From assembly GCA_945889005.1 (NCBI GenBank), contig CAMDBI010000003.1, positions 71,814-135,813 of the forward strand: a stretch of DNA of 64,000 bases, given 5' to 3'. The DNA comes from Bacteroides fragilis. GTDB taxonomy: Bacteria; Bacteroidota; Bacteroidia; Bacteroidales; DTGW01. The notes under the pieces are model-generated. The model was not told the origin of the DNA. It did no database searches and was given only the letters and a program-made list of their open reading frames with translations. The translations under genes and the position numbers were made by a program. Of the stretch, positions 43,974 to 60,081 are shown in pieces (within the stretch, counting starts at the first letter, position 1; every line of letters starts with the position of its first letter).

Positions 43974-44669
43974 ATGAAAACAATACAAGAAACCGACAAA
44001 GAATTTATTTGCGACATTCAAGCTCCATGTTTTCAATTGCTTACACCCGAAGAGATAGAGCTGGTAAGGGCAAGTAAAACTCAGGTGATTTTTCGAAAAG
44101 GCGATAGTTTATCAAAACAAGGTGCTTTTGCATCGTATGTACTGTTTATAATAAACGGACTTGCAAAGCAATACGTCGAGGATAGTGGCATAAAGGATTT
44201 CAATTTGCAAATAATAAAACCGGGAGAGTTTGTGGGTCTGTCGGCTGTGTTTACCAAAACATCGTTTAACTATTCGACTGTAGCTATTACGAATTGTCAG
44301 GCATTTTTAATCGAAACAGAAGCTATTGCCAATGTGGTAAAACAAAATGGTCAGTTTGGTTTCAATATTATAAAGCGATACTGCGAACAAAATGGCAGTC
44401 TTTATCATTCGTTGCGAACCATTTTATATAAACAAATGAATGGTCGTATGGCAGAGGCTCTTCTGTATTTAGATGGATTGAAACACATAGAACCCGATAT
44501 ATTTCAGTTGCTTAGTCGAAAAGATATTGCCGATTTTGCCAATGTATCGGCCGAAAATGCAGTAAAACTTCTTAAAAGCTTTGAAAAAGATGGATTTATT
44601 GAACTGAAAGAAAAGGATGTTTTTATTTTAAAAAGAGATGAATTAATAGAAGTAAGTAAAAGAGGCTAG
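43974..44669 (+). CDS. Crp/Fnr family transcriptional regulator
   Basis: cNMP-binding-like beta-roll (RKGDSLSKQG) and a C-terminal HTH (SRKDIADFANVSAENAVKLLK). Confidence 0.85.
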   Translation: MKTIQETDKEFICDIQAPCFQLLTPEEIELVRASKTQVIFRKGDSLSKQGAFASYVLFIINGLAKQYVEDSGIKDFNLQIIKPGEFVGLSAVFTKTSFNYSTVAITNCQAFLIETEAIANVVKQNGQFGFNIIKRYCEQNGSLYHSLRTILYKQMNGRMAEALLYLDGLKHIEPDIFQLLSRKDIADFANVSAENAVKLLKSFEKDGFIELKEKDVFILKRDELIEVSKRG

Positions 44670-44753
44670 TTCATAATCACTTTTTTTACATGATTTTTTT
44701 TAGGATTTGTAAAAAAGCGTAAGAATTATTATATTTAAGTAAAAATTGGTAAT

Positions 44754-46607
44754 ATGAAAAAACGATTAGCATATCAAGTCGCAATCCCGGTATTGGCAGT
44801 TGCCATTATCACGATTTTAGGATTTGTTTTTGTTTCAACATTTGTTGTAAATCAGATTATCGACAAACAAATAAACGAACAAGTTGTAAAAGCGAGAGAA
44901 TCGTACAAAGGTAATTATGAAAGGTTTATAAACAAGGCCGTTCAAATATCTGCGATTATATCTTCTCAAAAAGGAGTAATAGAAGCATTTAAAACATATA
45001 ACTCAACTAACGATTTAGAAAAAAGCGTTAATATATTAAAAGAAGATTTTCAGAATGCCGATAAAGCAATGAAATATGTTGGTTATAAAAATCTGCGGAT
45101 TCATTTTCATACTAAAGATTATAAATCATTTTACCGAAGTTGGGTCGATAAAAGGGGCGATGACCTTTCGTTCAGAAATACATTGAAAAAATGCATTAAT
45201 GAGAAAACACCAATATTAGGTATAGAAGCAGGCAGAGGAGGTATTGCTATTCGTGGTATTATGCCGGTTTTGGATGAAAATAATGAGGTTTTAGGTTCTG
45301 TAGAAAATCATATTGATGTTGGCGAATTAATGAAAATATTATCTACAGATACTCTTTCTGAGAATTATGCTTTGTATATCATGCCCGAACTGGTCGAATT
45401 GATGGACAAAAATATTAGTAATCAAACCGGAAACAGAAGTCAGCTCATTGGAGCATTTATGTTACTATCGGCAAGTAGCAATTATTTTATAACAGACAAT
45501 ATTGACGAAACAATTTTAAAACAGGCTATAAATGAGGCAATAAATATTCGAGGGGAAAGTCATTATTATAATTTCAATCCGGCATTTGACTTCGATGGGA
45601 AACCTATTGGTGTTATAGCCTATCAATACAATTTGGATGAAATTAACCGAAAATCTAAAAGTTTGAAAATAACTTTTATCTTGATAGGTGTTTTTGCAGG
45701 TGTTATTTTAATAATGTTAATTTTTGTATCGATAAGTAGAAATCTCAATAAGCCTATAAATAAAATTAAAGAATATGTAAAAGGCATTTCGGAAGGAGAT
45801 TTGTCAAGCCAACTCGAATTTGAATCGGACAATGAATTGGGGGAAGTTAGAAATGATCTTGAAAAAATGAAAATTAATTTGAAAGAGATAGTAAGTACTA
45901 TTATAAATGAAAGCGAAAAGATCTCAAAAATAAGTAATGAAATGAGCAATTCTGCAATCGATATTTCACGAGGAGCGTCAGATCAGGCTTCTTCGATCGA
46001 AGAAATGTCGTCGTCGATGGAAGAAATTTCGTCAAATATTCAACAGAATTTTGATAATACAAGGCAAACAGAGCAAATAGCAATACAATCGGCACAAAGT
46101 GCCAAAGAAGGCAATCGTTCGGCCGAAGAGATGGCAGATTCGATGCATTCCATTGCCGAAAAGGTTAAAATTATAAACGATTTAGCTTTTCAGACTAATA
46201 TACTGGCGCTCAATGCAGCAGTTGAAGCTGCACGTGCGGGCGAGCAAGGCAAAGGTTTTGCTGTTGTTGCAAGCGAGGTTCGCAAACTTGCCGAACGAAG
46301 CAAATTAGCTTCCGATGAAATTGCAAATATTATTAATGTTGGGGTTCAATCGTCGAAAAACATAAGTGAAAAGCTTTTGCAAATTGTTCCTCAAATAGAA
46401 AAAACTGCCCAATTGATTCAAGAAGTGTCGGTTTCGAGCCATGAAGTGAGCGAAGGGTCTATGGAAATAAACAATGCCATGTCGCAACTTAACCAAATAA
46501 CGCAACAAACAGCATCGCAAGCCGATGCAATGTCTAATGTAGCATCTGAGTTGAAAAGGCAAGCAAATTATTTAAAAGAACAGGTAGAATATTTTAAAGT
46601 TGATTAA
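44754..46607 (+). CDS. Methyl-accepting chemotaxis protein with a periplasmic Cache-like sensor domain
   Basis: TM1, a ~280-aa extracytoplasmic domain, TM2, HAMP, and an MA domain ([41 protein letters not shown]). Confidence 0.9.
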
Positions 46608-46630
46608 AAGATACACTGATAGTTTTTAAA

Positions 46631-46662
46631 GAAAAAAGCTGTTCGTTAGGACAGCTTTTTTC
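46631..46662. terminator. Bidirectional terminator between the MCP and peroxiredoxin genes
   Basis: Perfect 12-bp stem GAAAAAAGCTGT / ACAGCTTTTTTC with an 8-nt loop. A/T runs are built into both arms. Confidence 0.75.
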
Positions 46663-46684
46663 TTAAATTACTAGTTTTCAATAG

Positions 46685-47395
46685 CTATTTTTTCTTCAAT
46701 ATTTTATTTAAAACAGTTTCTTTATCAATCTTTTTGGTACAGAAGAACCAATCGTAACAAGTAGTATCTGCATTTTTTCCTTCCATACGTTCTTTCGCTA
46801 CTCCACATGAACCTGCAGGAGGCACTATTACTTCATCGCCTGGACGCCAATCTGCTGGAGTTGCAATGCTAAATTCGTCTGCGGTTTGTAAAGCTAATAC
46901 AACACGATACAACTCATCAAAATTACGACCTAAGCTAAGCGGATAATAAATGATAGTTCTGATAATTCCTTTAGGGTCAATAACAAATACCGCACGAACT
47001 GCTTTTGTATTGCTTTCACCAGGCATCATCATTCCATATTTCTGAGCCACTTCCATAGTTATATCTTCAATCAAAGGAAATGTTACTTCAACATTTTTCA
47101 TTCCTTTGTACTCAATTTTTTCTTTTATGGTACGCAACCATGCAATATGGCTATAGAGTCCGTCGACAGACAGACCAACAAGTTTGCAATTGGCTTCATT
47201 GAATTTTGGTTCTAATGTTGCAAAAGTCATAAACTCCGAAGTACAAACTGGCGTAAAGTCAGCAGGATGGCTGAACAAAATAACCCAACTGCCTTTGTAA
47301 TCCGATGGGAAATTAATTGGTCCCTGAGTTGTAACTGCTTTAAATTCTGGTGCATTTTCGCCTATGCGAGGCATTGAAATTACTTTTTCTTCCAT
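46685..47395 (-). CDS. Peroxiredoxin (Prx6/1-Cys-like subfamily)
   Basis: FSHPADFTPVCTSE peroxidatic Cys motif; 236 aa with a C-terminal extension. Confidence 0.9.
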   Translation of the reverse strand: MEEKVISMPRIGENAPEFKAVTTQGPINFPSDYKGSWVILFSHPADFTPVCTSEFMTFATLEPKFNEANCKLVGLSVDGLYSHIAWLRTIKEKIEYKGMKNVEVTFPLIEDITMEVAQKYGMMMPGESNTKAVRAVFVIDPKGIIRTIIYYPLSLGRNFDELYRVVLALQTADEFSIATPADWRPGDEVIVPPAGSCGVAKERMEGKNADTTCYDWFFCTKKIDKETVLNKILKKK

Positions 47396-47425
47396 GATAA
47401 TTTAATTTTTAATGATGTTTATATT

Positions 47426-47851
47426 TTAGCATTTATCAAACGTACCCCTTATTTGGAGCACTATTCCTTCAATTTTAAAACCTGTTAAATTCTTTTTCTT
47501 AAAATATTCTTGAAGTATTAAATCTAATTCTTCGTCTTTATAATCTTCTATCAAATCGCATTCTGAACAATATAAATGATGATGGTTTTCGGTAATGCCA
47601 TCATATCTCATTACATCATTGTCTGTTTTTACTTTTCTAATTATATTGTTTTCAACAAATGTTTCAAGCACCTTATATACAGTGCCAATAGCTATATTTG
47701 GATTTGAATCTCTTATATATTCAATGATATTATCAGCAGTAGGATGGTTGTTTAATTTATGTATAGCTTCAAGTATAACAGTTCGTTGAGGAGTAATCTT
47801 TAATCCTTTATCAAGTATTTTTTTTCTAATTTCTTCTTTAAACTCTTTCAT
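47426..47851 (-). CDS. Fur-family regulator, PerR-like
   Basis: Winged-helix N-terminus, HHHLYCSEC..., one CxxC and a C-terminal Cys. It is co-transcribed with the peroxiredoxin gene. Confidence 0.8.
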   Translation of the reverse strand: MKEFKEEIRKKILDKGLKITPQRTVILEAIHKLNNHPTADNIIEYIRDSNPNIAIGTVYKVLETFVENNIIRKVKTDNDVMRYDGITENHHHLYCSECDLIEDYKDEELDLILQEYFKKKNLTGFKIEGIVLQIRGTFDKC

Positions 47852-47866
47852 CGAATAATTACTAAA

Positions 47867-47881
47867 TAAGAATGATTCTCT
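47867..47881. promoter_or_regulatory. Fur/PerR-box-like palindrome upstream of the perR-like gene
   Basis: TAAGAAT-G-ATTCTCT with a perfect 5-1-5 core (AGAAT G ATTCT). It lies between a candidate -7 box (47890-47897) and ATG 47851. Confidence 0.35.
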
Positions 47882-47889
47882 TTATATAG

Positions 47890-47897
47890 CAAATTTA
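47890..47897 (-). promoter_or_regulatory. Candidate -7 box (TAAATTTG on the minus strand) for perR-prx
   Basis: The plus strand reads CAAATTTA, 39 nt upstream of ATG 47851. Confidence 0.35.
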
Positions 47898-47951
47898 ATT
47901 AAATATTTGTTTAGTTCAAATATGATATTGAATAAAAATGATTTTTAAAAA

Positions 47952-48101
47952 TTATTTAAGAATATAAACTTCCATACTGCCACATTTGGGGCATATTTCA
48001 ATTTTATCGGAGCCCATACAGGTTTCAACACTATCCCACAATACTTCTTTTGAGGTTCCTGTCCAATTGCAATTTCTGCATTTTAGATTAATATCTGTCA
48101 T
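47952..48101 (-). CDS. 49-aa zinc-ribbon-like protein (unannotated in the ORF track)
   Basis: MTDINLKCRNCNWTGTSKEVLWDSVETCMGSDKIEICPKCGSMEVYILK has CxxC...CxxC. Its ATG directly abuts the stop of the upstream 75-aa gene. Confidence 0.5.
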   Translation of the reverse strand: MTDINLKCRNCNWTGTSKEVLWDSVETCMGSDKIEICPKCGSMEVYILK

Positions 48102-48329
48102 TTAGTTCATAGAAGAAATAATATCCTCGACACTTTTAAAAGAATTTGGTAATAAATCGGGAGGGCATTTGCCAATTTTTTCCTTTACAAGATAGCGTTT
48201 GCATTGAGACCAGCCTTCGGTGCCGGCTTCACAATATACTTTTTTATAATTTTTTGCTGTAGTTTCTTTGCCTACAAGTACTCCGGAATAAATAGGGCAT
48301 TTTTCGAAGTTTTTACAAATGGTTTCCAT
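48102..48329 (-). CDS. 75-aa Cys-rich hypothetical protein
   Basis: Five Cys (C5, C11, C33, C43, C55). No family recognised. Confidence 0.5.
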   Translation of the reverse strand: METICKNFEKCPIYSGVLVGKETTAKNYKKVYCEAGTEGWSQCKRYLVKEKIGKCPPDLLPNSFKSVEDIISSMN

Positions 48330-49238: not shown

Positions 49239-49706
49239 TTAATAATCCAATGTTATAATACGACCTTTTGTAAAGCCAAAAAACTTGTCCTTTTGGGCTA
49301 TCTGAACACCATCCAATAAATCTTCAGGTTTGAAACCGGCAATTTTTAAACAGGTTGGACATGCCATTACACTTACATTTCTTTCATTCAACTGTTTAAT
49401 ATAAGTATGAGCCGACTCAAAATCTGCAAAATTTAAATCTTTTGAAGTTTTCACCAGAAGCTCAACAGCGTGTATGTCCATGTAAACAAGTACATCTTTA
49501 TCTTTCGACATCATTACTGCCATTTTGAGAGGCATTAGCACTTTATGAGGGTCGTTGTAACTTTCAGTAATATGAATAAAAACCCCATCCCTTACACTAT
49601 CGGTTGTGCAACAAGATTCTTTAACAGTTCTTTCTTCTTTGCTATGTGTCTGATTACACGATAAAATAAAAAGAGTTACGATAAAAATTAAGCCTAAATT
49701 TTTCAT
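49239..49706 (-). CDS. DsrE/DsrF-like family lipoprotein
   Basis: Lipobox (FILSC). DsrE-fold-like pattern (VFIHITES...PLKMAVMM...VLVYMDIHAV...MACPTC). Confidence 0.5.
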   Translation of the reverse strand: MKNLGLIFIVTLFILSCNQTHSKEERTVKESCCTTDSVRDGVFIHITESYNDPHKVLMPLKMAVMMSKDKDVLVYMDIHAVELLVKTSKDLNFADFESAHTYIKQLNERNVSVMACPTCLKIAGFKPEDLLDGVQIAQKDKFFGFTKGRIITLDY

Positions 49707-49797
49707 AATGTGTTTTTTTATAAAAATATATAATATTCTTCATATTATATGTAATGCTAATGTGAAAAATATACTAATAGTGGTTGCAAAGAGCAGT

Positions 49798-50862
49798 TTA
49801 TTTAGCAATAGTGCTCGAAAGTTTATTGACCTTGTCGAGATACATTGCGAACGAACGGTATAAAAAGTGTGTCCACTTGCCAAAAGGTACTATTAACACA
49901 GCCCATTGAACCAATACAATAATATGAACAATGTATAGCCATGAGTTTTGCTCTAATATTTGGAAGTCGATAAATAATCGTACGAAGAAAGCTGTAAAAG
50001 CCATCAGAAACAACCAAACCACGAACAACCAATCGGAAGGCTGAGAATGTTTGCTTACTTCTTTGTCTTTTTTAATACGGCGTCGCATAAAATCGAAGGT
50101 AACCCCAAATACTACGATACTTTCCAAATAACCAAGTACGATAATAAAAATATTGTCGGAACCAAACCAATCGAGAAATACAGTGGTAAAAAGCAAAGCG
50201 AGGTATCCGAAAACTAAAATAAGGTGTTCGAACCATCGGGTTTGATTATCGTCGCATCCCAATGCTCGTTTTTGAGTGAACATGTGTATAAATAATTCGC
50301 TCAAACTTTTATAATACACTTTTAATGGTATTTTCTTCTTTGAACTGCCAGTTAAGAACCACCACATCCGTATAAGATTTGGTGTAAGAATAATAGCAAA
50401 CACAGCTGCAATAGCTACCATTTCGAATGTATGACCAATATGCATTAACGTTGGTAAATGAAAATCGAGAGAAAAAGCATAAGCAACAATCAGAACTGTT
50501 GTGACGATAAATGCTATAGAAGTAAGCGTAATTGATTTATATAGTAAGCCCGACAAACCAGTCCAATCGTATTTGGCAGAAAGCCAACGACGAAGCGACA
50601 TCATGAGTTCACCAGGATTGGCAGAGCGTGGACATTGTGAGCTACATTCGCCACAATAATAGCATAACCAAGGCTTTAACGACGATTTAATTTCGTCTTC
50701 CAAACCTAGTGCACTGTACCGTACCATTTCGCGAGGAAAGGCATCTTCTTTTGTAGCAAGTGAACATGTAGCAGTACAGTTGCCACAATTATAACAGGCA
50801 TTAAAATCGAATGCGCCGTATTTTTTGAGTTCTTTGCCGAACGATGGATTTATGCTAGCCAT
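49798..50862 (-). CDS. QmoC/HdrE-like membrane subunit: N-terminal 2x[4Fe-4S] ferredoxin domain fused to a multi-TM cytochrome-b-like domain
   Basis: CYNCGNCTATC and CYYCGECSSQCP, followed by at least 5 TM helices with conserved His (HIGHTF, FEHLILVF, HIIVLVQW, WTHFLY). Confidence 0.65.
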   Translation of the reverse strand: MASINPSFGKELKKYGAFDFNACYNCGNCTATCSLATKEDAFPREMVRYSALGLEDEIKSSLKPWLCYYCGECSSQCPRSANPGELMMSLRRWLSAKYDWTGLSGLLYKSITLTSIAFIVTTVLIVAYAFSLDFHLPTLMHIGHTFEMVAIAAVFAIILTPNLIRMWWFLTGSSKKKIPLKVYYKSLSELFIHMFTQKRALGCDDNQTRWFEHLILVFGYLALLFTTVFLDWFGSDNIFIIVLGYLESIVVFGVTFDFMRRRIKKDKEVSKHSQPSDWLFVVWLFLMAFTAFFVRLFIDFQILEQNSWLYIVHIIVLVQWAVLIVPFGKWTHFLYRSFAMYLDKVNKLSSTIAK

Positions 50863-51137
50863 TATTTTGTGAGTTTATAAAAGTAATATTCGTCCATATC
50901 ATCGAGACTGTCAACGGCTATTTCACCAAACTTTTGCATAGCCATTAGGTAATATGTTGTTTCGTGTAATGGCATTTGTATTGCAGATGCAATTTGCGGG
51001 ATAGATTTTGGTTCGTCCTTCAAAGCATCTTTAATAGCCTTTTTATAACTGTTGAATTTCTTGCGTTCTTCGGTTACCGCATCTGGCACGGTACGTTTTT
51101 GCTTTATGATGTCGATGGTTTTGGTCTTTGTTTCCAT
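50862..51137 (-). CDS. 91-aa soluble protein, possible winged-helix fold
   Basis: It is intercalated between the HdrA-like and QmoC-like genes. Its stop overlaps the next ATG (TAATG). No family recognised. Confidence 0.45.
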   Translation of the reverse strand: METKTKTIDIIKQKRTVPDAVTEERKKFNSYKKAIKDALKDEPKSIPQIASAIQMPLHETTYYLMAMQKFGEIAVDSLDDMDEYYFYKLTK

Positions 51138-51148
51138 AATTTATTTTT

Positions 51149-52855
51149 TTATTCAGCAAGTGCATCAATCATAGCTTCTAATTGTGCATTAGTAAATCCG
51201 GCTAAGTCGATTGCATCTGTAGGACATACAGGTGTGCACATACCGCAGCCTTTACAGTTTGTTTCATTGACACGAGCCACTTTGCGTCCTTCGTAATCGA
51301 CCATTTCAATAGCATCGAACGAACAAGCTTCTTCGCACTTGCCACACCATGTGCAGGCTGCCGGATTGAGTTTGGCCAACACAGGTTCGAGCGAAAGTTC
51401 GCCTTTTGTTAGTACCGAATTAGCTTTGGCAGCTGCTGCTTGCGACGAATTGAGTGTTTCGATAATGTTCTTTGGCGATTGGCATGTTCCGGCTATAAAA
51501 ACGCCATCAATAACCGTTTCTACGGGGCGTAATTTCATGTGAACTTCGTTGAAGAAATTGTCGCGTCCGAGCGGTATCTTCAACATATCTTGAAGTGCTT
51601 TGTTTTCGCGTGGTATCATGCCTGTAACCAATACTACAAGGTCAACTTCTGCTTCTATTTCTTTGCCCGATGTTAGTATATCTTTAACCGAAACAATGGT
51701 TTTATTGCCTTTTAATTCAATCGTTGGGATATTATCGAGTGTAAATTGTAGAAAAATGTCACCTTGCTTCGATGCTTCTTCATAAATAAGTTCTTGTTTG
51801 CCATATGTGCGAACACCTCGAGTATAATGTAGGTTGGTAATATCTTTGAACTTTTGTTTTACTAAAACAGCTGTGTGCGAAGCAGTTGTGCAGCAATATC
51901 GTGAACAATATTTATTGTCGCCTTCGTCGTCTTGTCGGCTACCAACGCAATAGATGTAAGCAATCGTTTTTATTTTTTTACCTTTAAACTCAAGCTTGTC
52001 CGATGTGTTTACCAATTGTTTGAATAATGGTAAGGTTATTACATTGTCGAGTTTTCCAAAACTGTATTCGCCTTCAATAGGTTGGTAGGGTTCAAAACCT
52101 GTGTTTACAACAATACCACCAGCATTAAGAGTAAGTACTTCATTATCAACTTTTACTTTCAATTCAAAATTGCCGATACTCCCTTTTTTCTCAACAATTT
52201 CGGCTTTGGTAAACAATTTAATGTTTGCTCGTTTTTTTATTTCAACTAAAAATTTATCGACCAATTCTTTACCAGTTATGTTCAATGGAAATACTTGTCC
52301 AGAGTTAACAACCTTTCCTCCAACCGATTCGTTTTTTTCAATCAAGTAAACCTCAGTGCCCATATCGGCCAACGAAATAGCAGTTCGCATTCCACCAACA
52401 CCCGCTCCTACAACAGCTACTGCGTTTAATGCAGGGACTTTTTTAGAGAAAAGAGCTTCTGACTCACGAGCCTTTGCAATAGCTGCTTTTACAAGCTGAA
52501 TGGCTTTTTCGGTAGCGCCAGGCTTATCGTTTGAATGTGCCCATGAACTTTGTTCGCGAATATTTGCTTGGATATAATTAAAAGAATTGAGTCCAGCACG
52601 ATTGGCAACTCCTCTGAAGGTGTTTAAATGCAGTTTTGGCGAACACGAGGCTACCACAATTGCATCAAGTTGGTCGTTTTGAATATCGGCAACCATCTCT
52701 TTTTGCGATGAGTCGGCACAGGCAAATACGGTATTTTTAACCAAAAAGACATCGGCTTCGTCTTTTACTGCCTCTTTAACTTTATCGATATTAACATAAT
52801 CGGAAATATTGCCACCACAGTGGCAAACATATACTCCTATTTTTTTCTTACTCAT
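51149..52855 (-). CDS. HdrA/QmoB-like FAD and Fe-S flavoprotein
   Basis: HdrA N-terminal cluster domain (IGVYVCHCGGNIS, VVASCSPK), FAD motif VVGAGVGGMRTA, CSRYCC, and two C-terminal ferredoxin motifs (CTWCGKCEEAC, CKGCGMCTPVCP). Confidence 0.75.
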   Translation of the reverse strand: MSKKKIGVYVCHCGGNISDYVNIDKVKEAVKDEADVFLVKNTVFACADSSQKEMVADIQNDQLDAIVVASCSPKLHLNTFRGVANRAGLNSFNYIQANIREQSSWAHSNDKPGATEKAIQLVKAAIAKARESEALFSKKVPALNAVAVVGAGVGGMRTAISLADMGTEVYLIEKNESVGGKVVNSGQVFPLNITGKELVDKFLVEIKKRANIKLFTKAEIVEKKGSIGNFELKVKVDNEVLTLNAGGIVVNTGFEPYQPIEGEYSFGKLDNVITLPLFKQLVNTSDKLEFKGKKIKTIAYIYCVGSRQDDEGDNKYCSRYCCTTASHTAVLVKQKFKDITNLHYTRGVRTYGKQELIYEEASKQGDIFLQFTLDNIPTIELKGNKTIVSVKDILTSGKEIEAEVDLVVLVTGMIPRENKALQDMLKIPLGRDNFFNEVHMKLRPVETVIDGVFIAGTCQSPKNIIETLNSSQAAAAKANSVLTKGELSLEPVLAKLNPAACTWCGKCEEACSFDAIEMVDYEGRKVARVNETNCKGCGMCTPVCPTDAIDLAGFTNAQLEAMIDALAE

Positions 52856-54177
52856 GACAATGATTTTAAAAAACTCGAAGTTTCGGAAGCTGCAGCACCT
52901 GCCGACATAATGGTGTCGGGTATATCCATTGGAGCTGTTGCAGTACCCGCAACAAAAACTCCATCGATTGAAGTTCGGGCAGGACTCGACATTAACTCGG
53001 GCTGATTAATATAGTTTAAAGCATCTAACTGAAGTTTTTCATTCTTAAATACTTTTGCAATTTCCGGATTAGCAAGTAAACCAACCGATAGTACTACCAA
53101 ATCGTGTTTACTCTCAGTTATTTTACCTGTAGCAATATCTTCGTAACGAAGAATAAGGTCGCCATTTTCTTTTTCGGTAATACCTGCAATTTTTCCTTTC
53201 ACGTATTTAGCTCCCATGTCTTTAGCCTGTAGGTAAAATTCGTTGTAACCCTTGCCAAAAGCACGGATATTGATGTAATACATCGAAACATCGGCCATAG
53301 GTAAAGCACCCATTAGTAATTGAGCCTGTTTGGTTGAGTACATACAGCAAACTTGCGAACAAATAGGGTTTCCGACAGTATGGTCGCGCGAACCGGTGCA
53401 AAAGATATAAGCAATCTTGTCGGGTGTTTTGCCATCTGATGGGCGTAAAATACTATTAAATGGTCGGGTTGGAGCTAGTTGACGCTCCATTTGCATTGAA
53501 GTAATTACATTTTTATAACGTCCATAACCATAGCGCTCAATGGATATGGGGTCAAACAATTTAAAACCAGTTGCAACCACTACTGATTTAACCTGCACAT
53601 TGATAATTTCTTCTTCCATCGAAAAATCGATACAACTCGATGGACAAGCCTTTTCGCAAGCACCACACATGATACAGTTATCAATATCGATAAGTGCTAT
53701 ACGTGGATTGGCAATGCTAAATGGGATATATACAGCCTTGCGTGCTACCAAATTAAATTGAAATTGGTCTTTAGTAACCGAAGGACATACTTTTTCGCAT
53801 TCCTGACATCCTGTACAGTCGTTTTCAACGACATAACGAGGTTTCTTTTTAAGAGAAACAGAAAAAGAGCCATTGCTATTTTTAATAATCTCGTTTACCT
53901 CTGTAAGCGTATGGATTCTAATATTTGGATGTCGAGCAGTCTCGGACACCTTAGGAGTAGTGATACAGGCAGCACAATCGAGAGTAGGGAACACCTTGCT
54001 GAGTAGTATCATTTTACCACCAATTGAAGGCTCTTTCTCAACAAGAAGCACTTTGTAACCCATATCGGCAAGCTTAAGCGCCGACTCTTCTCCGGCAATA
54101 CCTGCTCCAATTACCAATGTATCGTATTGGGTATCGTTAAGGCAGACGTCTGTTTGTTTTTCGCTTTGTAAAGGCAT
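52852..54177 (-). CDS. HdrA/QmoA-like FAD and Fe-S flavoprotein
   Basis: VIGAGIAGEESA, the HdrA signature FPTLDCAACI, inserted ferredoxin motifs CTGCQECEKVCP and CIMCGACEKACP, and CSQVCC. Confidence 0.75.
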   Translation of the reverse strand: MPLQSEKQTDVCLNDTQYDTLVIGAGIAGEESALKLADMGYKVLLVEKEPSIGGKMILLSKVFPTLDCAACITTPKVSETARHPNIRIHTLTEVNEIIKNSNGSFSVSLKKKPRYVVENDCTGCQECEKVCPSVTKDQFQFNLVARKAVYIPFSIANPRIALIDIDNCIMCGACEKACPSSCIDFSMEEEIINVQVKSVVVATGFKLFDPISIERYGYGRYKNVITSMQMERQLAPTRPFNSILRPSDGKTPDKIAYIFCTGSRDHTVGNPICSQVCCMYSTKQAQLLMGALPMADVSMYYINIRAFGKGYNEFYLQAKDMGAKYVKGKIAGITEKENGDLILRYEDIATGKITESKHDLVVLSVGLLANPEIAKVFKNEKLQLDALNYINQPELMSSPARTSIDGVFVAGTATAPMDIPDTIMSAGAAASETSSFLKSLS

Positions 54178-54179
54178 AA

Positions 54180-54581
54180 TTATATTGTTTTAGCCAGTTC
54201 TAGTTCTTTTGAAAAAGAAATCATGTGTTTTACAAAAGGTTCGGCACAAACCGAGCAAATTGCAGCCATTTTAAGTTGCGAAGGTTTTAGACCTTTTTGC
54301 TTCATTTGCTCGTGAGTAGCTGAAATAATAGCAGAAGTTTTTTCGACACACGATTCGCCAAACGAACAATCGGTACCATCGGCTGCAATAAACACACCGT
54401 CGAAACCTTTTTCGAAAGCACGCATAATCCAACGAGGCTTTATGCAACTCGAACAGGGTACACTTATTGAATACACTGTATTCGGATAATGCTTTTTCAA
54501 CAAACCGGCAAGGTCAATTGCTGGGTCTGATATTTTTTCTGTCGAGAACACTAGTATCTTGGCTTTGGTGCTCATAGTCAT
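54180..54581 (-). CDS. MvhD/FlpD-like hydrogenase iron-sulfur subunit family protein
   Basis: 133 aa. The pattern VPCSSC...RAFEKGFDGVFIAADGTDC resembles the MvhD delta-subunit family. Confidence 0.6.
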   Translation of the reverse strand: MTMSTKAKILVFSTEKISDPAIDLAGLLKKHYPNTVYSISVPCSSCIKPRWIMRAFEKGFDGVFIAADGTDCSFGESCVEKTSAIISATHEQMKQKGLKPSQLKMAAICSVCAEPFVKHMISFSKELELAKTI

Positions 54582-54584
54582 TTT

Positions 54585-54833
54585 TTATTTTTTGAGAAAT
54601 AAACGATATATACCATCTTCGTCAATAGAGCCAAGGTATTCGTATTCCATTTTTTTGCACCATTTCGGAATATCGCTCTTTGTACCTTCGTCCGATGAAA
54701 GTATTTCCATTATTTGACTAGCTTGCACATCGCCAATTGCTTTTTTGGCTGCCAAAAGCGGTCCAGGACAAGCGGTTCCACGTGCATCTACTGTTTTGTC
54801 GCTCTTAAGAGCTTTTAATTCGTCTGTTGTCAT
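54585..54833 (-). CDS. tusA: TusA-family sulfur carrier protein
   Basis: DARGTACPGPLL has the TusA CPxP active-site motif. ATG 54833 is preferred to 54866. Confidence 0.8.
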   Translation of the reverse strand: MTTDELKALKSDKTVDARGTACPGPLLAAKKAIGDVQASQIMEILSSDEGTKSDIPKWCKKMEYEYLGSIDEDGIYRLFLKK

Positions 54834-54842
54834 GATAATATA

Positions 54843-54935
54843 ATTTGAAAATTTGAAAATATGCAAATTTGAAAATGAAATAATTGTTTAAAGATGAGAT
54901 GATTTGATGATTAGATTAATAATTCATTTTCAAAT
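54843..54935. repeat. ATTTGAAAAT decamer: three direct copies plus one inverted copy
   Basis: Direct copies lie at 54843-52, 54851-60 and 54867-76. The inverted copy ATTTTCAAAT lies at 54926-35. All are in the dsrE-like / tusA spacer. Confidence 0.85.
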
Positions 54936-54957
54936 CAACTCATTTTTAAATTTATAA

Positions 54958-55506
54958 TTAAATAAACAATTGAATGCGGCTTTCGTCGGCATCTGAGAGG
55001 TAGCTGCCAACACCAACATATTTCAGATGTGGGTAGTCAATCATTTCCTCTTTTTTGAAGCCCATTAGGTCCATACTCATTTCGCATACGTTTATTTCAA
55101 CGCCTAGTTCACCAGCAGTTGCAAGCAAATCTTCGAGCGATGATACACGTTTTTTCTTCATTAAACTTTTAAGCATGGCAGTTCCCATACCTGCCATATT
55201 CATTTTCGAAAGTTTTAGTTTCTTACTGCCACGAGGCATCATAAAACCAAACATTTTAGACATAAAGTCTTTTCCTTTGCCCGATTTGTTTGGGTCGCGA
55301 AGCATGGCTGTTGCCCAAAATGTAAAAAACATTTTCACTTCGGTATCCATAGCACGTGCGCCCGTTGCTATAATCATGGCTGCAAGCATTTTGTCCAAAT
55401 CGCCCGAGAATGCAATAATCGATATTTGGTCTTTTGCTTGACGGTTCTGTAATTTTTTTAATTTTTCTTCAAGTTCTGCAACTTGTTTTTCTATTTCGTT
55501 TGCCAT
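54958..55506 (-). CDS. DsrE/DsrF/DrsH-like (DrsE_2) family protein
   Basis: 182 aa. An N-terminal coiled coil, then ISIIAFSGDLDKMLAAMIIATGA...FFTFWA...CEMSMDLMG, typical of the DsrE-like proteins that pair with TusA. Confidence 0.65.
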   Translation of the reverse strand: MANEIEKQVAELEEKLKKLQNRQAKDQISIIAFSGDLDKMLAAMIIATGARAMDTEVKMFFTFWATAMLRDPNKSGKGKDFMSKMFGFMMPRGSKKLKLSKMNMAGMGTAMLKSLMKKKRVSSLEDLLATAGELGVEINVCEMSMDLMGFKKEEMIDYPHLKYVGVGSYLSDADESRIQLFI

Positions 55507-55582: not shown

Positions 55583-55598
55583 TGTGCATGTTTACACA
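55583..55598. promoter_or_regulatory. Imperfect CRP/FNR-type box TGTGC-N6-ACACA
   Basis: Read directly. It lies 6 nt from the perfect box. Confidence 0.4.
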
Positions 55599-55601: not shown

Positions 55602-55623
55602 ATATGTGATGTATATCACATAT
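55602..55623. promoter_or_regulatory. Perfect CRP-type box TGTGA-N6-TCACA inside the 22-bp palindrome ATATGTGAT-GTAT-ATCACATAT
   Basis: 9-bp perfect arms, in the divergent spacer between the Crp/Fnr gene and the dsrE-like operon. Confidence 0.6.
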
Positions 55624-55664: not shown

Positions 55665-56348
55665 ATGGAAAAAATACATTGCAAGTTATGTAGTTTCAAA
55701 TCAACAGCTGAAAAGGAGTTGAACGATTGTGAGCTCGATGTTTTGGGAAATAACTGTGCTGAGGTTAAGTTCAAAGCAGGAGATGTAATTATTATCCAAG
55801 ACTCATTTTCGACCAATGTAGCCTATATAAAAACAGGTTTGGTCAAAATACATAGAAAGGGGCCGATTAAGGATATGATTATGAGGATTGTAAAGGCTCC
55901 GGCATATCTTTGTTTACCTAGTTCGTTTGGCGATAAGATTAACCATTTTTCGGCAACTGCGCTTGAGGACGATACGACTATTTGCTTTATTGACCTTCAT
56001 ACATTTAAACAATTTATATATGCCAATGGCGATTTTGCTTATCAAATTTTACTTGATTTGAGTAAAGGTCAGTTACAAAGTTTTCAAAACCATATAAATA
56101 ATGCTCAGAAACACAACATAGGTAAAGTTGCTGAGGTGCTTTTGTTTTTTGCAAATGATATTTATAAAAGTTCCACATTTGCACTTCCAATTTCAAGGCA
56201 AGATATTGGAGATATAACGAGTTCAACACGCGAAAGTGTTAGCCGGATTTTATCGGACTTTCATAAAGATAAAATTGTTGATATCGACGGAAAAAATGTT
56301 ACAATTCTGAATATCGATTTGTTAAAACAAATGAGTGAGAAAGGTTAA
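55665..56348 (+). CDS. Crp/Fnr family transcriptional regulator with an N-terminal Cys cluster
   Basis: The N-terminus has C-x2-C-x12-C-x8-C (CKLCSFKSTAEKELNDCELDVLGNNC). A cNMP-like domain and a C-terminal HTH (SRQDIGDITSSTRESVSRILS) follow. Confidence 0.85.
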   Translation: MEKIHCKLCSFKSTAEKELNDCELDVLGNNCAEVKFKAGDVIIIQDSFSTNVAYIKTGLVKIHRKGPIKDMIMRIVKAPAYLCLPSSFGDKINHFSATALEDDTTICFIDLHTFKQFIYANGDFAYQILLDLSKGQLQSFQNHINNAQKHNIGKVAEVLLFFANDIYKSSTFALPISRQDIGDITSSTRESVSRILSDFHKDKIVDIDGKNVTILNIDLLKQMSEKG

Positions 56349-57142
56349 TGTGTTTCATATCCCGTACAATTGTAAAAAATATTCAAATCGCAATCATTGA
56401 GCATTTTTGCGTAATTATCCACTCCAGTGCAGTGGCAAAGACCTATTGACTGAGGTCTAACTTTATTGAAATAATCTTTTACTACATTATATTCATCCGT
56501 AGAAGCATCTTTTAAATGAAAACCGCCTAAAACCTTAGCAATGGGCAATTTGAAATGTTCGGTTGCTGTGGTGCAAATATTGGTAATACCTCTGTGCGAA
56601 CAGGCTGTAATAATGTTTATTTGTTCGTTTTGCTTTATTGCTATAAAAAGCTCATCGTTAAAAGTATCATCGATAAAATCGTCGCCTTGTTTTACTTGAA
56701 GGCCTTTGAAATGCGTATCGGTAGCATTGTAAATAGTAATATCGGGCATTAAAAAAACATTATTGGCTATTTCTGTAATTTCGTTTACGTAAACAATTCT
56801 GTTTTTAATATTTGGCTCATCGTATTTGGTACCAATAAAACGACTTTTACTATGATACTTTGGAACGAATATTTCTTTTTTAGCATATACTTTAGCCTTA
56901 TTATTTCTATAAAGAAATGGGTATAAGCCACCCGTGTGGTCGTAGTGCCCATGCGAAAGCACTAATATATCAATATCATTGATTTCAATCCCCAATTTTA
57001 GAGCATTTTCCATAAACAGTTTGCTCTGCCCCGTATCGAAGAGTATTTTTTTATCGTCGGTTTCAATATAAATGGAAAGCCCATGTTCAGCAACTAAACC
57101 AGCTTTATATACGAGGTTTTCGATTAAAGTTATAATTCGCAT
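56345..57142 (-). CDS. MBL-fold metallo-hydrolase
   Basis: HGHYDHTGG motif, 265 aa. Confidence 0.8.
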   Translation of the reverse strand: MRIITLIENLVYKAGLVAEHGLSIYIETDDKKILFDTGQSKLFMENALKLGIEINDIDILVLSHGHYDHTGGLYPFLYRNNKAKVYAKKEIFVPKYHSKSRFIGTKYDEPNIKNRIVYVNEITEIANNVFLMPDITIYNATDTHFKGLQVKQGDDFIDDTFNDELFIAIKQNEQINIITACSHRGITNICTTATEHFKLPIAKVLGGFHLKDASTDEYNVVKDYFNKVRPQSIGLCHCTGVDNYAKMLNDCDLNIFYNCTGYETH

Positions 57143-57163
57143 ATTGTTAGATATATAAAAAAA

Positions 57164-58858
57164 TTACTTTTCTCTTCCATAAGTCCAAGCCATTATTCCT
57201 CCTTCGAGCACTTTCACGTTATTAAATCCATTTGCCTGAAGAATTAATGCAGCTTCGTATCCACGTAGTGAAATTTTACACCAACAGATAATTTCAGCGT
57301 TTTTGTCTTGTGGCATTTCTTCTAAACGTTTGCGAAGTTGACCAAGTGGGATAAGTTTTTCGCCAATTCCTAGACGCATTTGTTCATATTCATCGGGGTT
57401 GCGGAAGTCTAGCAAAACGAGCTTTTCTTTTTTATCGAGCTTTTCTTTGAGCTGCTCTGCTGATATTCCCTTGAAATATCCGTATAGTTTGTTTTGCATA
57501 ATGTGAGCAGTGGCAATACTATGGTCAATAGCCAAAGAATAGGGTGGAGCATAAGGCAAGTCGGCATTTACCATATCATTTACTGTAAGTTTACCCTGTA
57601 TAGCCATTGCCCAAATAGCAACCTGTTTGCTTACATCGCCAGGTCCAAGTACCTGAGCACCTAAAATAGTGCCTTTTGATTTTTCGACCACCAATTTGGT
57701 AACCAATAATTTTCCCTGCATAAAACCGGGTTTGTCTAGACTGGCATTTACAACAGTTTCAATATTTGTAATGCTGTTTCTAATTGCATTTTGTTCCGAC
57801 AGCCCTGTAGCACCAACACCATAATCGAATACTTTGCAAATACCTGTTTGTATCGTACCTGGAAACGATGCAGTATTTCCATTAATAATATTTTCGCCTG
57901 CTACCCTTCCCTGCAAGTTGGCTAAGTCGCCATAAGGAGCTAAAATAGATTTGTGACTGATAAGATTGGTTATTTCGACACAATCGCCAACCGCATAAAT
58001 ATTGGCATCGGACGTTTGCATGTGATAATCGACTACAATACCACCTGTTTGTCCTATCTGAAGTCCAGCCTCCTTGGCTAATTTGCTGTTTGGGATTACA
58101 CCAATAGCAACCACAGCCAATTCACAAGGAATTTCGGTGCCGTTTTGAAGCTTCACTGCAGTAAGCTTACCATTTTCGCCAATAAATGCAGTCACACCAT
58201 TTTCGAGTATCACATTGGCTTTGCTCTGTACATATTTTTCGACCAATTTTGCCATTTGCCTATCGAGAAAAGTAAGCAGTTGGGGTAGCAATTCGATAAG
58301 AGTAATTTCGATGCCTGCAAGTCGCAATGCTTCGCATGTTTCGATACCAATAAGCCCTCCACCAATAACCACTGCTTTTTTAATCTTGCCTTCATCTTTA
58401 ACTTTACGAAGGTAATCGGCATCTGGCAACGATTGCAGTGTAGTAACGCCATCGAGTTCAATGCCCGGAACGGGTGGTTTTCGAGGAGTAGCACCTGTTG
58501 CAATAACCAATTTATCATATTCGGCGGTGCCTTTTTCACCAGTTAGAATGTCGGTATATTCGATGCGTTTATTTTTACGGTCAATTGCAGTAACTTCTGT
58601 ATGAACCTTTGTTGTTATTTTTTTTGCATTCCAAAAGAATTTTGAGTCGCGAACTACCCCGGCAGGAGAACAAAGAAGTTGGTCGCGGTCGTCGAAAAAA
58701 CCGCCAATATAATAAGGATAGCCACACGAAGCCATCGATAGGTCTGAAGCCTTTTGGTAGATTGTGATTTCCGCATTTTCGTCCATTCGACGAGCTTTCG
58801 ATGCTGCTTTGGGTCCGGCAGCCGAACCTCCGATTACAATAATTCTTTTTGTGTTCAT
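57164..58858 (-). CDS. CoA-disulfide reductase-like flavoprotein with a C-terminal rhodanese domain (CoADR-RHD)
   Basis: GGSAAGPKAA FAD motif, active-site SMASCGYPYY, a second Rossmann motif VIGGGLIGIE, and a C-terminal rhodanese with CWCKISLRG. Confidence 0.85.
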   Translation of the reverse strand: MNTKRIIVIGGSAAGPKAASKARRMDENAEITIYQKASDLSMASCGYPYYIGGFFDDRDQLLCSPAGVVRDSKFFWNAKKITTKVHTEVTAIDRKNKRIEYTDILTGEKGTAEYDKLVIATGATPRKPPVPGIELDGVTTLQSLPDADYLRKVKDEGKIKKAVVIGGGLIGIETCEALRLAGIEITLIELLPQLLTFLDRQMAKLVEKYVQSKANVILENGVTAFIGENGKLTAVKLQNGTEIPCELAVVAIGVIPNSKLAKEAGLQIGQTGGIVVDYHMQTSDANIYAVGDCVEITNLISHKSILAPYGDLANLQGRVAGENIINGNTASFPGTIQTGICKVFDYGVGATGLSEQNAIRNSITNIETVVNASLDKPGFMQGKLLVTKLVVEKSKGTILGAQVLGPGDVSKQVAIWAMAIQGKLTVNDMVNADLPYAPPYSLAIDHSIATAHIMQNKLYGYFKGISAEQLKEKLDKKEKLVLLDFRNPDEYEQMRLGIGEKLIPLGQLRKRLEEMPQDKNAEIICWCKISLRGYEAALILQANGFNNVKVLEGGIMAWTYGREK

Positions 58859-58861
58859 AAT

Positions 58862-59602
58862 TTATGGTTTAGTTATGATTGATACGATTATGACTGAAAT
58901 ACCTGCCAAAAGGAGCAAGAATTGAAATATCGATTGACGGGCATTTGTTTTACGGTGCATTTCGGGAACCAAATCGGCTAGAGCAATGTATATAAAACCT
59001 GCCGCCGATAGTGCAAGAATATAGGGCATGGCAATTTTGGTATACTGACCGGCGTACCAAGCCAACAATGCACCTACAATGGCGGTAACTCCAGAAAAAA
59101 GGTTGTATAGAATTGCTTTGCGCTTGGAAAAACCTGCTTTGAGCATAACTCCAAAGTCGGCAATTTCCTGTGGTATTTCATGTGCAAATACCGATATGGT
59201 AACTACAATACCAAAAGAAGGAGAATGTAGAAATGCTGCGGCAATAACAATGCCATCGAGAAAGTTATGGAACGAATCGCCAATCATTAGCATTAAAGCT
59301 CCTGCTTTGTTGTGTCGGTCGCAATTTTCGTCCACACATATACGCCAAAGCATTATTTTCTCGATAATAAAAAAGAATAATATGCCAATCAAAACAGCAT
59401 ACGTCATTTGATAACCGCCCAGTTTCACTGCATTTGGCAACATACCCAAAAATGCAGCACCAAGTAATGTGCCTCCAGCAAAAGCATTGATGTGTTTTGT
59501 GAGTTTCTGCAAATACTCATTACTAAAGCGCAGCATGAGCGAAGCAAGAAGCACGCTGCCAATATTACCGATGATTACTGCTAAAATTATTGTTGCTATC
59601 AT
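58862..59602 (-). CDS. ZIP-family divalent metal transporter
   Basis: 8 TM helices. Motifs HNFLDGIVIAAAF and FAHEIPQEIADFGVM. Confidence 0.85.
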   Translation of the reverse strand: MIATIILAVIIGNIGSVLLASLMLRFSNEYLQKLTKHINAFAGGTLLGAAFLGMLPNAVKLGGYQMTYAVLIGILFFFIIEKIMLWRICVDENCDRHNKAGALMLMIGDSFHNFLDGIVIAAAFLHSPSFGIVVTISVFAHEIPQEIADFGVMLKAGFSKRKAILYNLFSGVTAIVGALLAWYAGQYTKIAMPYILALSAAGFIYIALADLVPEMHRKTNARQSIFQFLLLLAGISVIIVSIITKP

Positions 59603-60081
59603 TTTACGCCTTCTGTATCTTCAAATACTTTAAAAGAATTGTTTTTATGTTCTCTATCCTTTACAACTAAGGTTGTAACAGGAGCCTTTGATTTTTGATT
59701 GAAAATAATATCGTGTCCCATACAAAGTCCAAAAGAAATGTTTAATTCGGTATTGTTATCAGCAAGAAATTTGGCTTGTCCTGCAGGATTACACGAAATT
59801 CCTTTGGCCTCAATACCCAGCATTTCAGACGAAGGTACTCTACCATTGTAACAATCTATTGATGACACTTCAAACTCGCTTTCTAATGCTTCTTTAAGTT
59901 TTATTGCTTCTCTTTTAAAAGCGATACAATGTGCAATTCCAATGCGTTTTATTCCTGAAAGTCTTGCATATTTTATAAGTTCTTCAACCCTATTTTTACC
60001 CATAATACGTGCTTCTTCAGCTATTCTCATAGTATGAATATCAGCTTCGGAATATAATTTTTTGTGTTCGTTTATGTCCAT
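59599..60081 (-). CDS. DUF1847-like protein
   Basis: GIAHCIAF..., GISCNPAGQA and FGLCMGHD resemble DUF1847. ATG 60081 is preferred (no overlap with the thioesterase gene). Its stop overlaps the ZIP start (ATGA). Confidence 0.5.
   Translation of the reverse strand: MDINEHKKLYSEADIHTMRIAEEARIMGKNRVEELIKYARLSGIKRIGIAHCIAFKREAIKLKEALESEFEVSSIDCYNGRVPSSEMLGIEAKGISCNPAGQAKFLADNNTELNISFGLCMGHDIIFNQKSKAPVTTLVVKDREHKNNSFKVFEDTEGVK

Follow-up and report, generated by a model that had tools for sequence, protein, structure and literature searches.

A cluster of HdrA- and QmoC-like genes linked to tusA and dsrE is widespread in Bacteroidota and recurs in other phyla, including Archaea

In the QmoABC complex, two HdrA-like flavoproteins are joined to QmoC, a membrane subunit in which an HdrC-like domain with two [4Fe-4S] clusters is fused to an HdrE-like dihaem cytochrome b, and the haems b of the complex are reducible by menaquinol analogues (PMC3333476; Pires et al. 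2003 as cited there). The canonical gene order is seen in Ammonifex thiophilus (locus L085), where aprB-aprA-qmoA-qmoB-qmoC lie together and an MvhD-like domain is fused to QmoB. Two other described systems bear comparison, namely the methanogen MvhADG-HdrABC complex (PDB 5ODC, 8RVU) and sHdr (hdrC1B1A-hyp-hdrC2B2 with LbpA; PMC11094781, PMC6067878). Here we analyse a 64-kb stretch of a Bacteroidales genome (contig CAMDBI010000003.1, positions 71,814 to 135,813; hereafter the window, whose positions supply the coordinates of its genes), in which a QmoABC-like gene set on the minus strand at 49239-55506 is encoded together with TusA and DsrE-family sulfur carriers. The conserved unit consists of a divergent FNR-like Crp regulator gene and a TGTGA-N6-TCACA operator, followed by dsrE2-tusA-mvhD-hdrA1-hdrA2-p91-qmoC, in which p91 encodes a winged helix-turn-helix (wHTH) protein. 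An earlier, sequence-only reading of this DNA had drawn attention to this gene set. We find that the system is not peculiar to this genome but is a widespread family present in two domains of life, and that it probably encodes a complex of the HdrA/Qmo family whose partner module is new, whose architecture is split and which has one subunit more. Loci of this kind are referred to below as TusA-type.

All eight minus-strand open reading frames (ORFs) of the region were located, and scans with Pfam and NCBIfam profiles upheld the domain calls of the sequence-only reading as well as the parallel that it drew to QmoABC in A-B-C order and domain content. The first gene (54958..55506) encodes a DrsE_2-type DsrE-family sulfur-carrier protein of 182 residues (PF13686, E = 2.8e-53, 180 bits). 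It is followed by tusA (54585..54866; PF01206, E = 1.4e-21, 76.5 bits against a cutoff of 28.6), whose product has its active-site Cys33 in a CPGP motif, and by the gene for a free-standing MvhD/FlpD-like [2Fe-2S] electron-transfer protein of 133 residues (54180..54581; PF02662, E = 1.1e-24, spanning positions 1-120 of the 123-position model). Two HdrA-type flavoproteins come next, HdrA1 (441 residues, 52852..54177) and HdrA2 (568 residues, 51149..52855), which score 487 bits (positions 139-561) and 482 bits, respectively, on the NF040770 HdrA2 model. The Cys-free p91 (91 residues, 50862..51137) precedes the QmoC-like subunit (354 residues, 49798..50862), which matches the NF038018 qmoC model at full length (149 bits, aligned to positions 4-358 of 360). 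Neighbouring genes from tusA through qmoC either overlap by 1-4 nt or stand 2-11 nt apart, a spacing that indicates one transcription unit. The true start of tusA is probably the ATG at 54833, giving 82 residues, rather than the TTG at 54866 first assigned to it, because homologues are 82-84 residues long. On the plus strand, 55665..56348 encodes the Crp/Fnr-family regulator (Pfam cNMP_binding and HTH_Crp_2, with weak NCBIfam CRP/FNR matches), and a perfect CRP-type palindrome, TGTGATATACATCACA, the probable operator, lies in the crp/dsrE2 intergenic region at 55605..55620.

A genome scan with the QmoC-like protein returned at least 298 species-representative genomes, and synteny was counted in the best 80 of the 298. 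These 80 loci are all from Bacteroidota, mostly Bacteroidales metagenome-assembled genomes, and their QmoC proteins are 65-76% identical to that of the window. Within them, p91 was present in 76/80, HdrA1 and HdrA2 in 72/80 each, MvhD in 70/80 and TusA, encoded immediately upstream of mvhD, in 69/80. DsrE2 was detected in 59/80 by tblastn, and family clustering placed its gene directly upstream of tusA in 66/69; the genes that are missing largely reflect contig ends. The genes flanking the unit were retained in only 1-11 of the 80 loci (tblastn). Independent gene calls showed the full cluster in a cultured isolate, Williamwhitmania taraxaci (GCA_900096565.1). An exact-sequence database look-up of the window QmoC returned no record, and a scan with the sister representative P0125 found only three WOR-3 loci of different architecture.

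A scan with a profile of diverse QmoC proteins recovered at least 595 stretches encoding a relative, and gene order outside Bacteroidota was read among 80 loci returned by that scan. The order tusA-mvhD-hdrA1-hdrA2-p91-qmoC is found in Archaeoglobales, Phycisphaerae, Thermoguttaceae and other Planctomycetota, Verrucomicrobia and Krumholzibacteriota, as well as in many Anaerolineales (Chloroflexota) and many Desulfobacterales (Desulfobacterota). One further locus shows the same tusA-to-qmoC order by independent gene calls, and p91 is encoded in most TusA-type loci of the other phyla. A DsrE-family gene accompanies 114 of 120 TusA-type loci overall. Outside Bacteroidota it is present in 48/51, lying upstream of tusA in 12/51 and directly after qmoC in 36/51, and this retention of the gene while its position shuffles points to functional coupling rather than inherited gene order. 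The co-conservation of TusA and DsrE with the Qmo-like genes, on which the sequence-only reading had staked its proposal, therefore holds across phyla. These loci define a large, uncharacterised branch of the HdrA/Qmo family with a wide phylogenetic spread, comprising at least 298 Bacteroidales-type species genomes and at least 51 loci from six or more other phyla, including Archaea.

Some variation surrounds the carrier genes. Three Desulfobacterales loci (L101, L107 and L134) encode a TusA of about 170-207 residues with an extra N-terminal TusA-like domain that has no active-site Cys. A conserved Cys-rich protein of 235 residues, with no Pfam family, is encoded about 0.5 kb downstream of qmoC/dsrE in L103 (11736-12443) and in 10 other non-Bacteroidales loci. 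Candidate Rosetta-stone fusions of TusA to MvhD, or of DsrE to TusA, were rejected, the long ORFs being start-codon artefacts or carrying the degenerate TusA-like N-terminal domain. Recurrent neighbours outside Bacteroidota include LysR regulators and sigma-54 activators, and a YeeE/YedE transporter is found with a second TusA in seven loci.

Conservation was read from alignment columns of 100-136 sequences from several phyla, and cofactor ligands are mostly 90-100% conserved across more than 100 sequences. Cys33 of TusA is 100% conserved (n=115), and the protein scores 54.8 bits on the NCBIfam equivalog for E. coli-type TusA (cutoff 78). The single Cys of DsrE2 (C141) aligns with the active-site Cys of the family, and this column is kept in 115/116 sequences; with 70.9 bits on the NF047629 DsrE2 model, against a cutoff of 210, the protein is probably best regarded as a DsrE-family member and not as the characterised DsrE2. 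In MvhD, C109 and C112 are invariant, C43 and C72 are conserved at 81-87%, and C43, C72 and C78 together range from 69 to 87%.

HdrA1 has a thioredoxin-reductase-like flavin adenine dinucleotide (FAD) core, an inserted 2x[4Fe-4S] ferredoxin domain and an FPTLDCAACI motif. Fourteen Cys that belong to clusters or motifs are 100% conserved: C68, C71 and C260/273/277/278, together with the eight that lie in the inserted ferredoxin domain. Against solved methanogen HdrA chains it scores 380-388 bits over about 415 residues, with the FPT(L/N)DC(S/A)xCI motif aligned. HdrA2 begins with a 4-Cys domain, continues into an FAD core and ends in a 2x[4Fe-4S] ferredoxin domain; its core has neither the CxxC motif nor the inserted ferredoxin. 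It conserves C11/13/46/71, C303/317/321/322, the GxGxxG FAD motif and the Cys residues of the C-terminal ferredoxin. In the two flavoproteins the ligand Cys are 98-100% conserved, save C504 of the C-terminal ferredoxin domain (69%). By their motifs, HdrA1 and HdrA2 jointly cover the HdrA domain set, which comprises FAD, the DCxxC motif and FeS clusters in N-terminal, core, inserted and C-terminal positions. Set against the Mvh-Hdr structure reportedly described by Wagner and colleagues in 2017, they appear to supply each of these domains once and the FAD core twice, as would be expected of a split, heterodimeric HdrA.

The two remaining subunits were analysed by structure prediction as well. 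For p91 there was no Pfam, NCBIfam or PDB sequence match. Its AlphaFold2 (AF2) model has a mean predicted local distance difference test (pLDDT) score of 85 and an ArsR/SmtB/MarR wHTH fold (TM-score 0.5-0.6), in keeping with the suggestion of the sequence-only reading that this protein might be winged-helix. In seven loci, namely L038 and the six Bacteroidales variants whose HdrA1 has an inserted NAD(P)H module (see below), p91 forms the C-terminal part of a fused HdrA2 of about 730 residues, and for this reason it is probably a subunit or domain of the complex and not a free regulator. The QmoC-like protein comprises an HdrC-like 2x[4Fe-4S] domain, for which HdrC matches were found in the PDB, and a six-helix membrane domain. 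Its eight Cys and C203, H213, H313 and H332 are 100% conserved and H193 is conserved at 90% (n=136). The AF2 model (pLDDT 85) has six long helices, for which NarI was the sole recurrent fold match, and a weak one (prob 0.8-0.9, E ~1); several QmoC relatives carry PF02665. From the conserved histidines and the model, the membrane domain is probably a dihaem cytochrome b.

These features allow a close comparison with QmoABC. Both systems have two HdrA-like flavoproteins and a QmoC in A-B-C order together with an MvhD-like module, both are probably linked to menaquinone, and both raise the question of a third partner and of confurcation (PMC3333476). The sequence-only reading had noted that the MvhD module is split off here and fused to QmoB in the canonical system, and the Ammonifex locus bears this out: canonical QmoB is 736-744 residues long with a fused MvhD domain, whereas in TusA-type loci MvhD is a separate gene placed first among the complex subunits. 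Unlike QmoABC, the TusA-type system has an HdrA1 in which the CxxC motif of HdrA and the inserted ferredoxin domain are both retained; the winged-helix p91 is found in the TusA-type system only and is absent from canonical QmoABC, and tusA and dsrE are obligatorily linked to the TusA-type genes but not to qmoABC. Median identities of HdrA1 were 50% to the TusA-type proteins of other phyla, 43% to the core of Methanothermococcus (M. wolfeii) HdrA (357 bits) and 36% to QmoA (248 bits); for HdrA2 they were 41% to the TusA-type proteins of other phyla and 27% to canonical QmoB. By these measures HdrA1 is nearer to methanogen HdrA than to QmoA, and HdrA1 and HdrA2 form orthologous groups of their own. 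They are not QmoA and QmoB orthologues. No Qmo structure was found in a search of the PDB.

It could be argued that the cluster is simply an ordinary QmoABC in a new location, passing menaquinol electrons to an APS reductase encoded elsewhere in the genome. QmoC lends itself to this argument, being a full-length QmoC-family protein whose relatives are labelled QmoC by JGI. In a rough tree built by neighbour joining from BLOSUM distances, which has no support values and is used only qualitatively, canonical QmoC nests among TusA-type QmoC and the Bacteroidales proteins form a long separate branch, from which we take the window QmoC to be a true QmoC-family protein. Its 149 bits fall below the equivalog cutoff of NF038018 (300), and ten diverse QmoC-like representatives score 120-221 bits. 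Failure to reach this cutoff carries little weight because one of the ten, P0126, also falls short (201 bits) despite 66% identity to the Ammonifex QmoC encoded beside aprBA; the cutoff captures only part of the canonical family. Other findings speak against a relocated QmoABC. A tblastn search with the Ammonifex AprA and AprB found neither in the 64-kb window, in agreement with the sequence-only reading, and none beside 135 TusA-type loci, each searched with up to 10 kb of flank at either end, whereas matches adjoin 5/8 canonical qmoABC loci. The low identity of both flavoproteins to QmoA and QmoB relative to their TusA-type orthologues, the separate mvhD and the restriction of p91 to TusA-type loci point the same way. 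A TusA-type cluster is also found in Desulfobacterales, the taxonomic order to which canonical qmo carriers belong, and this is suggestive of a paralogous system. To our knowledge, Bacteroidales fermenters such as Williamwhitmania are not sulfate reducers. Taken with the gene content of the window and of the locus flanks, this makes a relocated QmoABC very improbable.

The MvhADG-HdrABC complex resembles the TusA-type system in its HdrA domain set, its MvhD and the HdrC-like N-terminus of QmoC. It differs in that HdrA is here split into two non-identical proteins and the cluster has neither an HdrB (CCG) catalytic subunit nor an MvhAG hydrogenase; the high-potential branch leads to a membrane cytochrome b (quinone) in the TusA-type system and to heterodisulfide in MvhADG-HdrABC. 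Related loci present the same parts in other combinations. In 10/126 TusA-type loci (L007:5007-9999, L009, L035, L036, L040, L042, L114, L120, L154 and L156), HdrA1 is about 900-960 residues long and contains, within its ferredoxin domain, an inserted Fer4_20 plus Pyr_redox_2 (GltD/NfnB-like) NAD(P)H module. These proteins, encoded next to mvhD, resemble the HdrL HdrA/GltD fusions of Desulfobacterium autotrophicum (PMC2702500); unlike HdrL, the window HdrA1 has no insertion, and the paper does not report qmoC, tusA or dsrE at the HdrL loci it describes. A sister cluster in other Bacteroidales (L135:7293-16358, and also L121, L163 and L147) encodes Crp, an HdrA of 601 residues, QmoC, an HdrA of 583 residues, MvhD, an MvhG-like protein (Oxidored_q6), a NiFe hydrogenase large subunit and HycI, with hypF upstream in L135; it is a candidate membrane-bound H2:menaquinone/ferredoxin HdrA complex. 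A JGI metagenome locus (L167:7033-17125) encodes a CCG (HdrB-like) protein, QmoC, an HdrA of 1048 residues, FlpD, an HdrA of 669 residues, a second FlpD, FrhB/FdhB and a molybdopterin formate dehydrogenase (Fdh), and a similar QmoC-HdrA-MvhD-HdrA order was seen by tblastn in Ca. Methanoperedens (L108). The HdrA/MvhD/QmoC core is thus modular, with AprBA, MvhAG hydrogenase, Fdh/FrhB or TusA/DsrE encoded beside the same core.

On this basis we infer a membrane-bound MvhD-HdrA1-HdrA2-p91-QmoC complex in which the genes beside mvhD specify the cytoplasmic redox partner. In the TusA-type system that partner would be sulfane sulfur, which TusA would carry as a persulfide and the DsrE-family protein would pass on. 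Two haems b and two HdrC-like [4Fe-4S] clusters would serve QmoC for electron exchange with the menaquinone pool, and the HdrA1/HdrA2 heterodimer would act as a split HdrA, both halves with an FAD core. Flavin could then couple three branches, of which the first is menaquinone/menaquinol, the second a low-potential carrier (ferredoxin, reached through the ferredoxin domains) and the third an MvhD branch leading to TusA/DsrE. Where HdrA1 has the NfnB/GltD-like insertion, as it does in about 8% of loci, NAD(P)H would be drawn in as well. The relevant potentials are about -450 mV for ferredoxin, -74 mV for menaquinone and about -270 mV for S0 or persulfide/HS-. The midpoint between ferredoxin and menaquinone, about -260 mV, lies near the sulfur couple, so that three-way bifurcation or confurcation would be thermodynamically sensible in either direction. 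In the reductive direction, menaquinol and reduced ferredoxin would confurcate onto TusA-persulfide to release H2S, and intracellular S0/polysulfide would serve as a membrane-coupled electron sink. We favour this direction because persulfide reduction needs no oxygen-atom chemistry, because the hosts are mainly fermenters in need of sinks, and by analogy to Qmo-Apr, for which the same confurcation logic has been proposed (PMC3333476).

Quinone-linked redox of carrier-bound sulfur, possibly bi- or confurcating, is in our view a reasonable hypothesis. Its specific form, a modular HdrA-QmoC complex with TusA/DsrE-carried sulfane sulfur as third partner and net reductive confurcation in fermentative Bacteroidales, is the reading we prefer, tentatively and at a little less than an even chance. 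The stronger claim that this is a previously unrecognised flavin-based bi- or confurcation, whose mid-potential couple is TusA/DsrE-bound sulfane sulfur/sulfide wired to menaquinone and ferredoxin, seems to us doubtful. Several points weigh against these proposals. A literature search yielded no expression, biochemical or genetic data for any member of the family, and sequence by itself would fix neither the direction of electron flow nor bifurcation. The partner of canonical Qmo has been mapped mainly to QmoA and not to the MvhD domain (PMC3333476), which reduces the rule that the gene beside mvhD encodes the partner to a heuristic. The chief weakness concerns the catalytic site: a profile scan of the operon and a tblastn search of the 64 kb with an HdrB-like query found no HdrB/HdrD CCG catalytic subunit, leaving the electron route to sulfur unexplained. 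The modelled haem-b fold of QmoC is weakly backed (Foldseek E ~1), and the search for aprBA was confined to the window and the locus flanks.

In sHdr and in the TusA-type system alike, an Hdr-like complex is genetically tied to TusA and DsrE-family transferases, hdrA is followed by the gene of a small protein of unknown function, and two-Cys ArsR-type regulators lie nearby in many lineages; such regulators, of the NolR/HlyU/SqrR/BigR group, were found in 22 non-Bacteroidota loci. There are also differences. The operon contains no HdrB, soluble HdrC or lipoate-binding protein gene and none recurs in the flanks of the 135 loci; TusA-type loci also have no lipoate ligase genes. Whereas sHdr is soluble and its HdrA small, the TusA-type system has MvhD, a membrane-bound QmoC and two large HdrA proteins whose ferredoxin domains are complete, and the sHdr HdrA structure 6TJR matches the window HdrA proteins with only 103-135 bits. 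TusA-type hosts are mostly strict anaerobes, unlike those of sHdr.

The system might instead run in the oxidative direction as a substitute for SQR based on flavin bifurcation driven by sulfide, converting sulfide (or carrier thiol plus HS-) into a persulfide on TusA/DsrE and sending electrons both downhill to menaquinone and uphill to ferredoxin or NAD(P)+, with a gain of low-potential reductant. SqrR/BigR-group two-Cys ArsR regulators typically control sulfide-oxidising genes, and the descriptions of the sequence records place the hosts in sulfidic habitats. All HdrA modules of the H2-driven, bifurcating Mvh-Hdr complex are present, with MvhD as the entry point, and the Bacteroidales sister cluster encodes the Mvh hydrogenase, an electron donor, at the same position; the near-balanced potentials would allow either direction. 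We nevertheless consider sulfide oxidation unlikely. Neither a Cys-flavin site of the SQR/FCC type nor an HdrB-type site for sulfide oxidation is evident, menaquinol would require a terminal acceptor, and the fate of the persulfide product is unexplained. The hosts, as mostly strict anaerobes and fermenters, would want electron sinks rather than extra reductant.

A different reading of the same locus is that the carriers are not substrates at all. The complex would then be a ferredoxin/NAD(P)H:menaquinone (or thiol/disulfide) oxidoreductase whose partner is a small molecule or is encoded elsewhere (e.g. HdrBC-like), and TusA/DsrE would serve sulfur mobilisation (loading of TusA from sulfide for thiolation or cofactor biosynthesis), sensing or maturation. 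The lack of a catalytic sulfur-reducing subunit in the operon fits such a role, and the NAD(P)H-module variants show that pyridine nucleotides are possible partners. In about 10/80 Bacteroidales loci, moreover, an hdrC-hdrB-like (CCG) pair lies 0.07-4 kb from the cluster; there is none in the window. The pair directly follows qmoC in L028 (1795-3585), and the other loci are L010, L017, L034, L037, L051, L066, L074, L079 and L080. It could be the missing catalytic module in some genomes. Bacteroidales neighbourhoods are also rich in general redox and oxidative-stress genes, namely those for thioredoxin reductase, peroxiredoxin, Fur/PerR, ferritin-like, DUF134 and NifX-like proteins. Against this, tusA is translationally coupled to mvhD (3-nt gap), and sister clusters consistently place the redox partner at this position. 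Retention of TusA and of a DsrE with an invariant Cys across phyla and two domains, despite rearrangement, is unlike what would be expected of a dispensable accessory. A role for the carriers outside the electron path is to our minds improbable, about on a par with sulfide oxidation, and reduction of carrier-bound sulfane sulfur remains the reading we prefer.

For Bacteroidales, the proposal includes a regulatory step in which expression would be set by the FNR-like Crp regulator acting on the TGTGA-N6-TCACA operator. The crp gene is divergent from the operon in 57-60/80 Bacteroidales loci, and the regulator has Cys6, Cys9 and Cys107 conserved at 96-98% and C31 in 63%, a pattern that appears FNR-like. 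In 59 orthologous crp/dsrE2 intergenic regions the palindrome is perfect in 45 and has at most one mismatch in 57, compared with perfect matches in 14/1180 random 340-nt windows of the same loci. Judging from this conservation, TGTGATATACATCACA is probably the operator of a Crp-type regulator. A second, imperfect palindrome, TGTGTAAACATGCACA, at 55583-55598 lies 6 nt from the perfect box and may be a second site for the regulator. Scans for consensus promoters and terminators gave background frequencies only and were uninformative. The sequence-only reading had the parts of the locus right; it had missed the conserved FNR-like regulator and operator, as well as the variants with an NAD(P)H module and the fusion of p91 to HdrA2.

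A full-text literature search found no description of the tusA-mvhD-hdrA-hdrA-x-qmoC cluster, although some key reviews were not covered and an earlier mention is possible. Since relatives carry JGI QmoC labels, metagenomic 'qmoC' or 'hdrA' matches could be misread as evidence of sulfate reduction. The modularity of the core (AprBA, MvhAG, Fdh, TusA-DsrE) makes the third-partner and confurcation question of Qmo testable, and the cultured carrier W. taraxaci makes the present hypothesis directly so. If the hypothesis is true, organisms that are not regarded as sulfur cyclers would have their menaquinone and ferredoxin pools tied to sulfane sulfur inside the cell. A membrane-coupled, energy-conserving role in cryptic sulfur cycling would then fall to hundreds of Bacteroidales species taken to be 'purely fermentative', as well as to Anaerolineales, Planctomycetota and others, and the TusA-type system would offer an experimentally simpler model for the long-debated confurcation of QmoABC.

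Several neighbours had been proposed as partners, or were considered here as parts of the system, and were set aside after comparison of loci: the metallo-beta-lactamase (MBL)-fold protein, the methyltransferase, the peroxiredoxin, Fur, the coenzyme A disulfide reductase (CoADR)-rhodanese and the DsrE-like lipoprotein each occur in only 1-15 related loci. The lipoprotein (155 residues, 49239..49706, minus strand) has weak PF02635/PF13686 matches, a signal peptide and lipobox recognised from its sequence and a kept active-site Cys column. Its gene lies 91 nt downstream of qmoC in the same orientation, and because it is present in 1/80 related loci it falls outside the conserved unit, to which it is either accessory or unrelated. 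The CoADR-rhodanese, also put forward as a partner, is a neighbour in 5/80 loci, the methyltransferase gene in 11/80 and the peroxiredoxin gene in 8/80. The MBL gene was found in 11/80 loci by tblastn and in 15/135 TusA-type loci by clustering, and it lies directly 3' of qmoC in W. taraxaci; the same holds for several of the roughly 11-15 loci that have it nearby. The gene called SQR-like (28165-29622) scores 43 bits against a cutoff of 525 and is not a conserved partner. A link to asrABC, prompted by the report of asr beside hdr in the Zodletone paper, was likewise dropped, no such genes being recurrent within 10 kb.

The genes around the unit in the window are as follows. On the minus strand, 56345-60153 encodes a DUF1847 protein, a ZIP metal transporter, a CoADR that ends in a rhodanese domain, an Npsr-like architecture (368 bits, where the CoADR cutoff is 579), and the MBL-fold protein, and the 3' end of this gene string overlaps the 3' end of crp by 4 nt. 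On the other side, 41038-48329 is a redox and oxidative-stress neighbourhood with genes for a TehA-like transporter, a thioredoxin reductase whose 343 bits fall just short of the 343.45 required by the equivalog, a second Crp-family regulator, a methyl-accepting chemotaxis protein, a 1-Cys peroxiredoxin and a Fur/PerR-family regulator. It includes a Cys-rich ORF of 75 residues (48102-48329) that has no family and is also found in L004, L010 and L017. Further along, 60657-63954 encodes one Mrp-type and then two MinD-type P-loop ATPases, both of the latter with embedded ferredoxin-like Cys motifs, followed by an unannotated ORF of 249 residues. Mrp/MinD-like, DUF134 and NifX-like genes are recurrent near the cluster in Bacteroidales.

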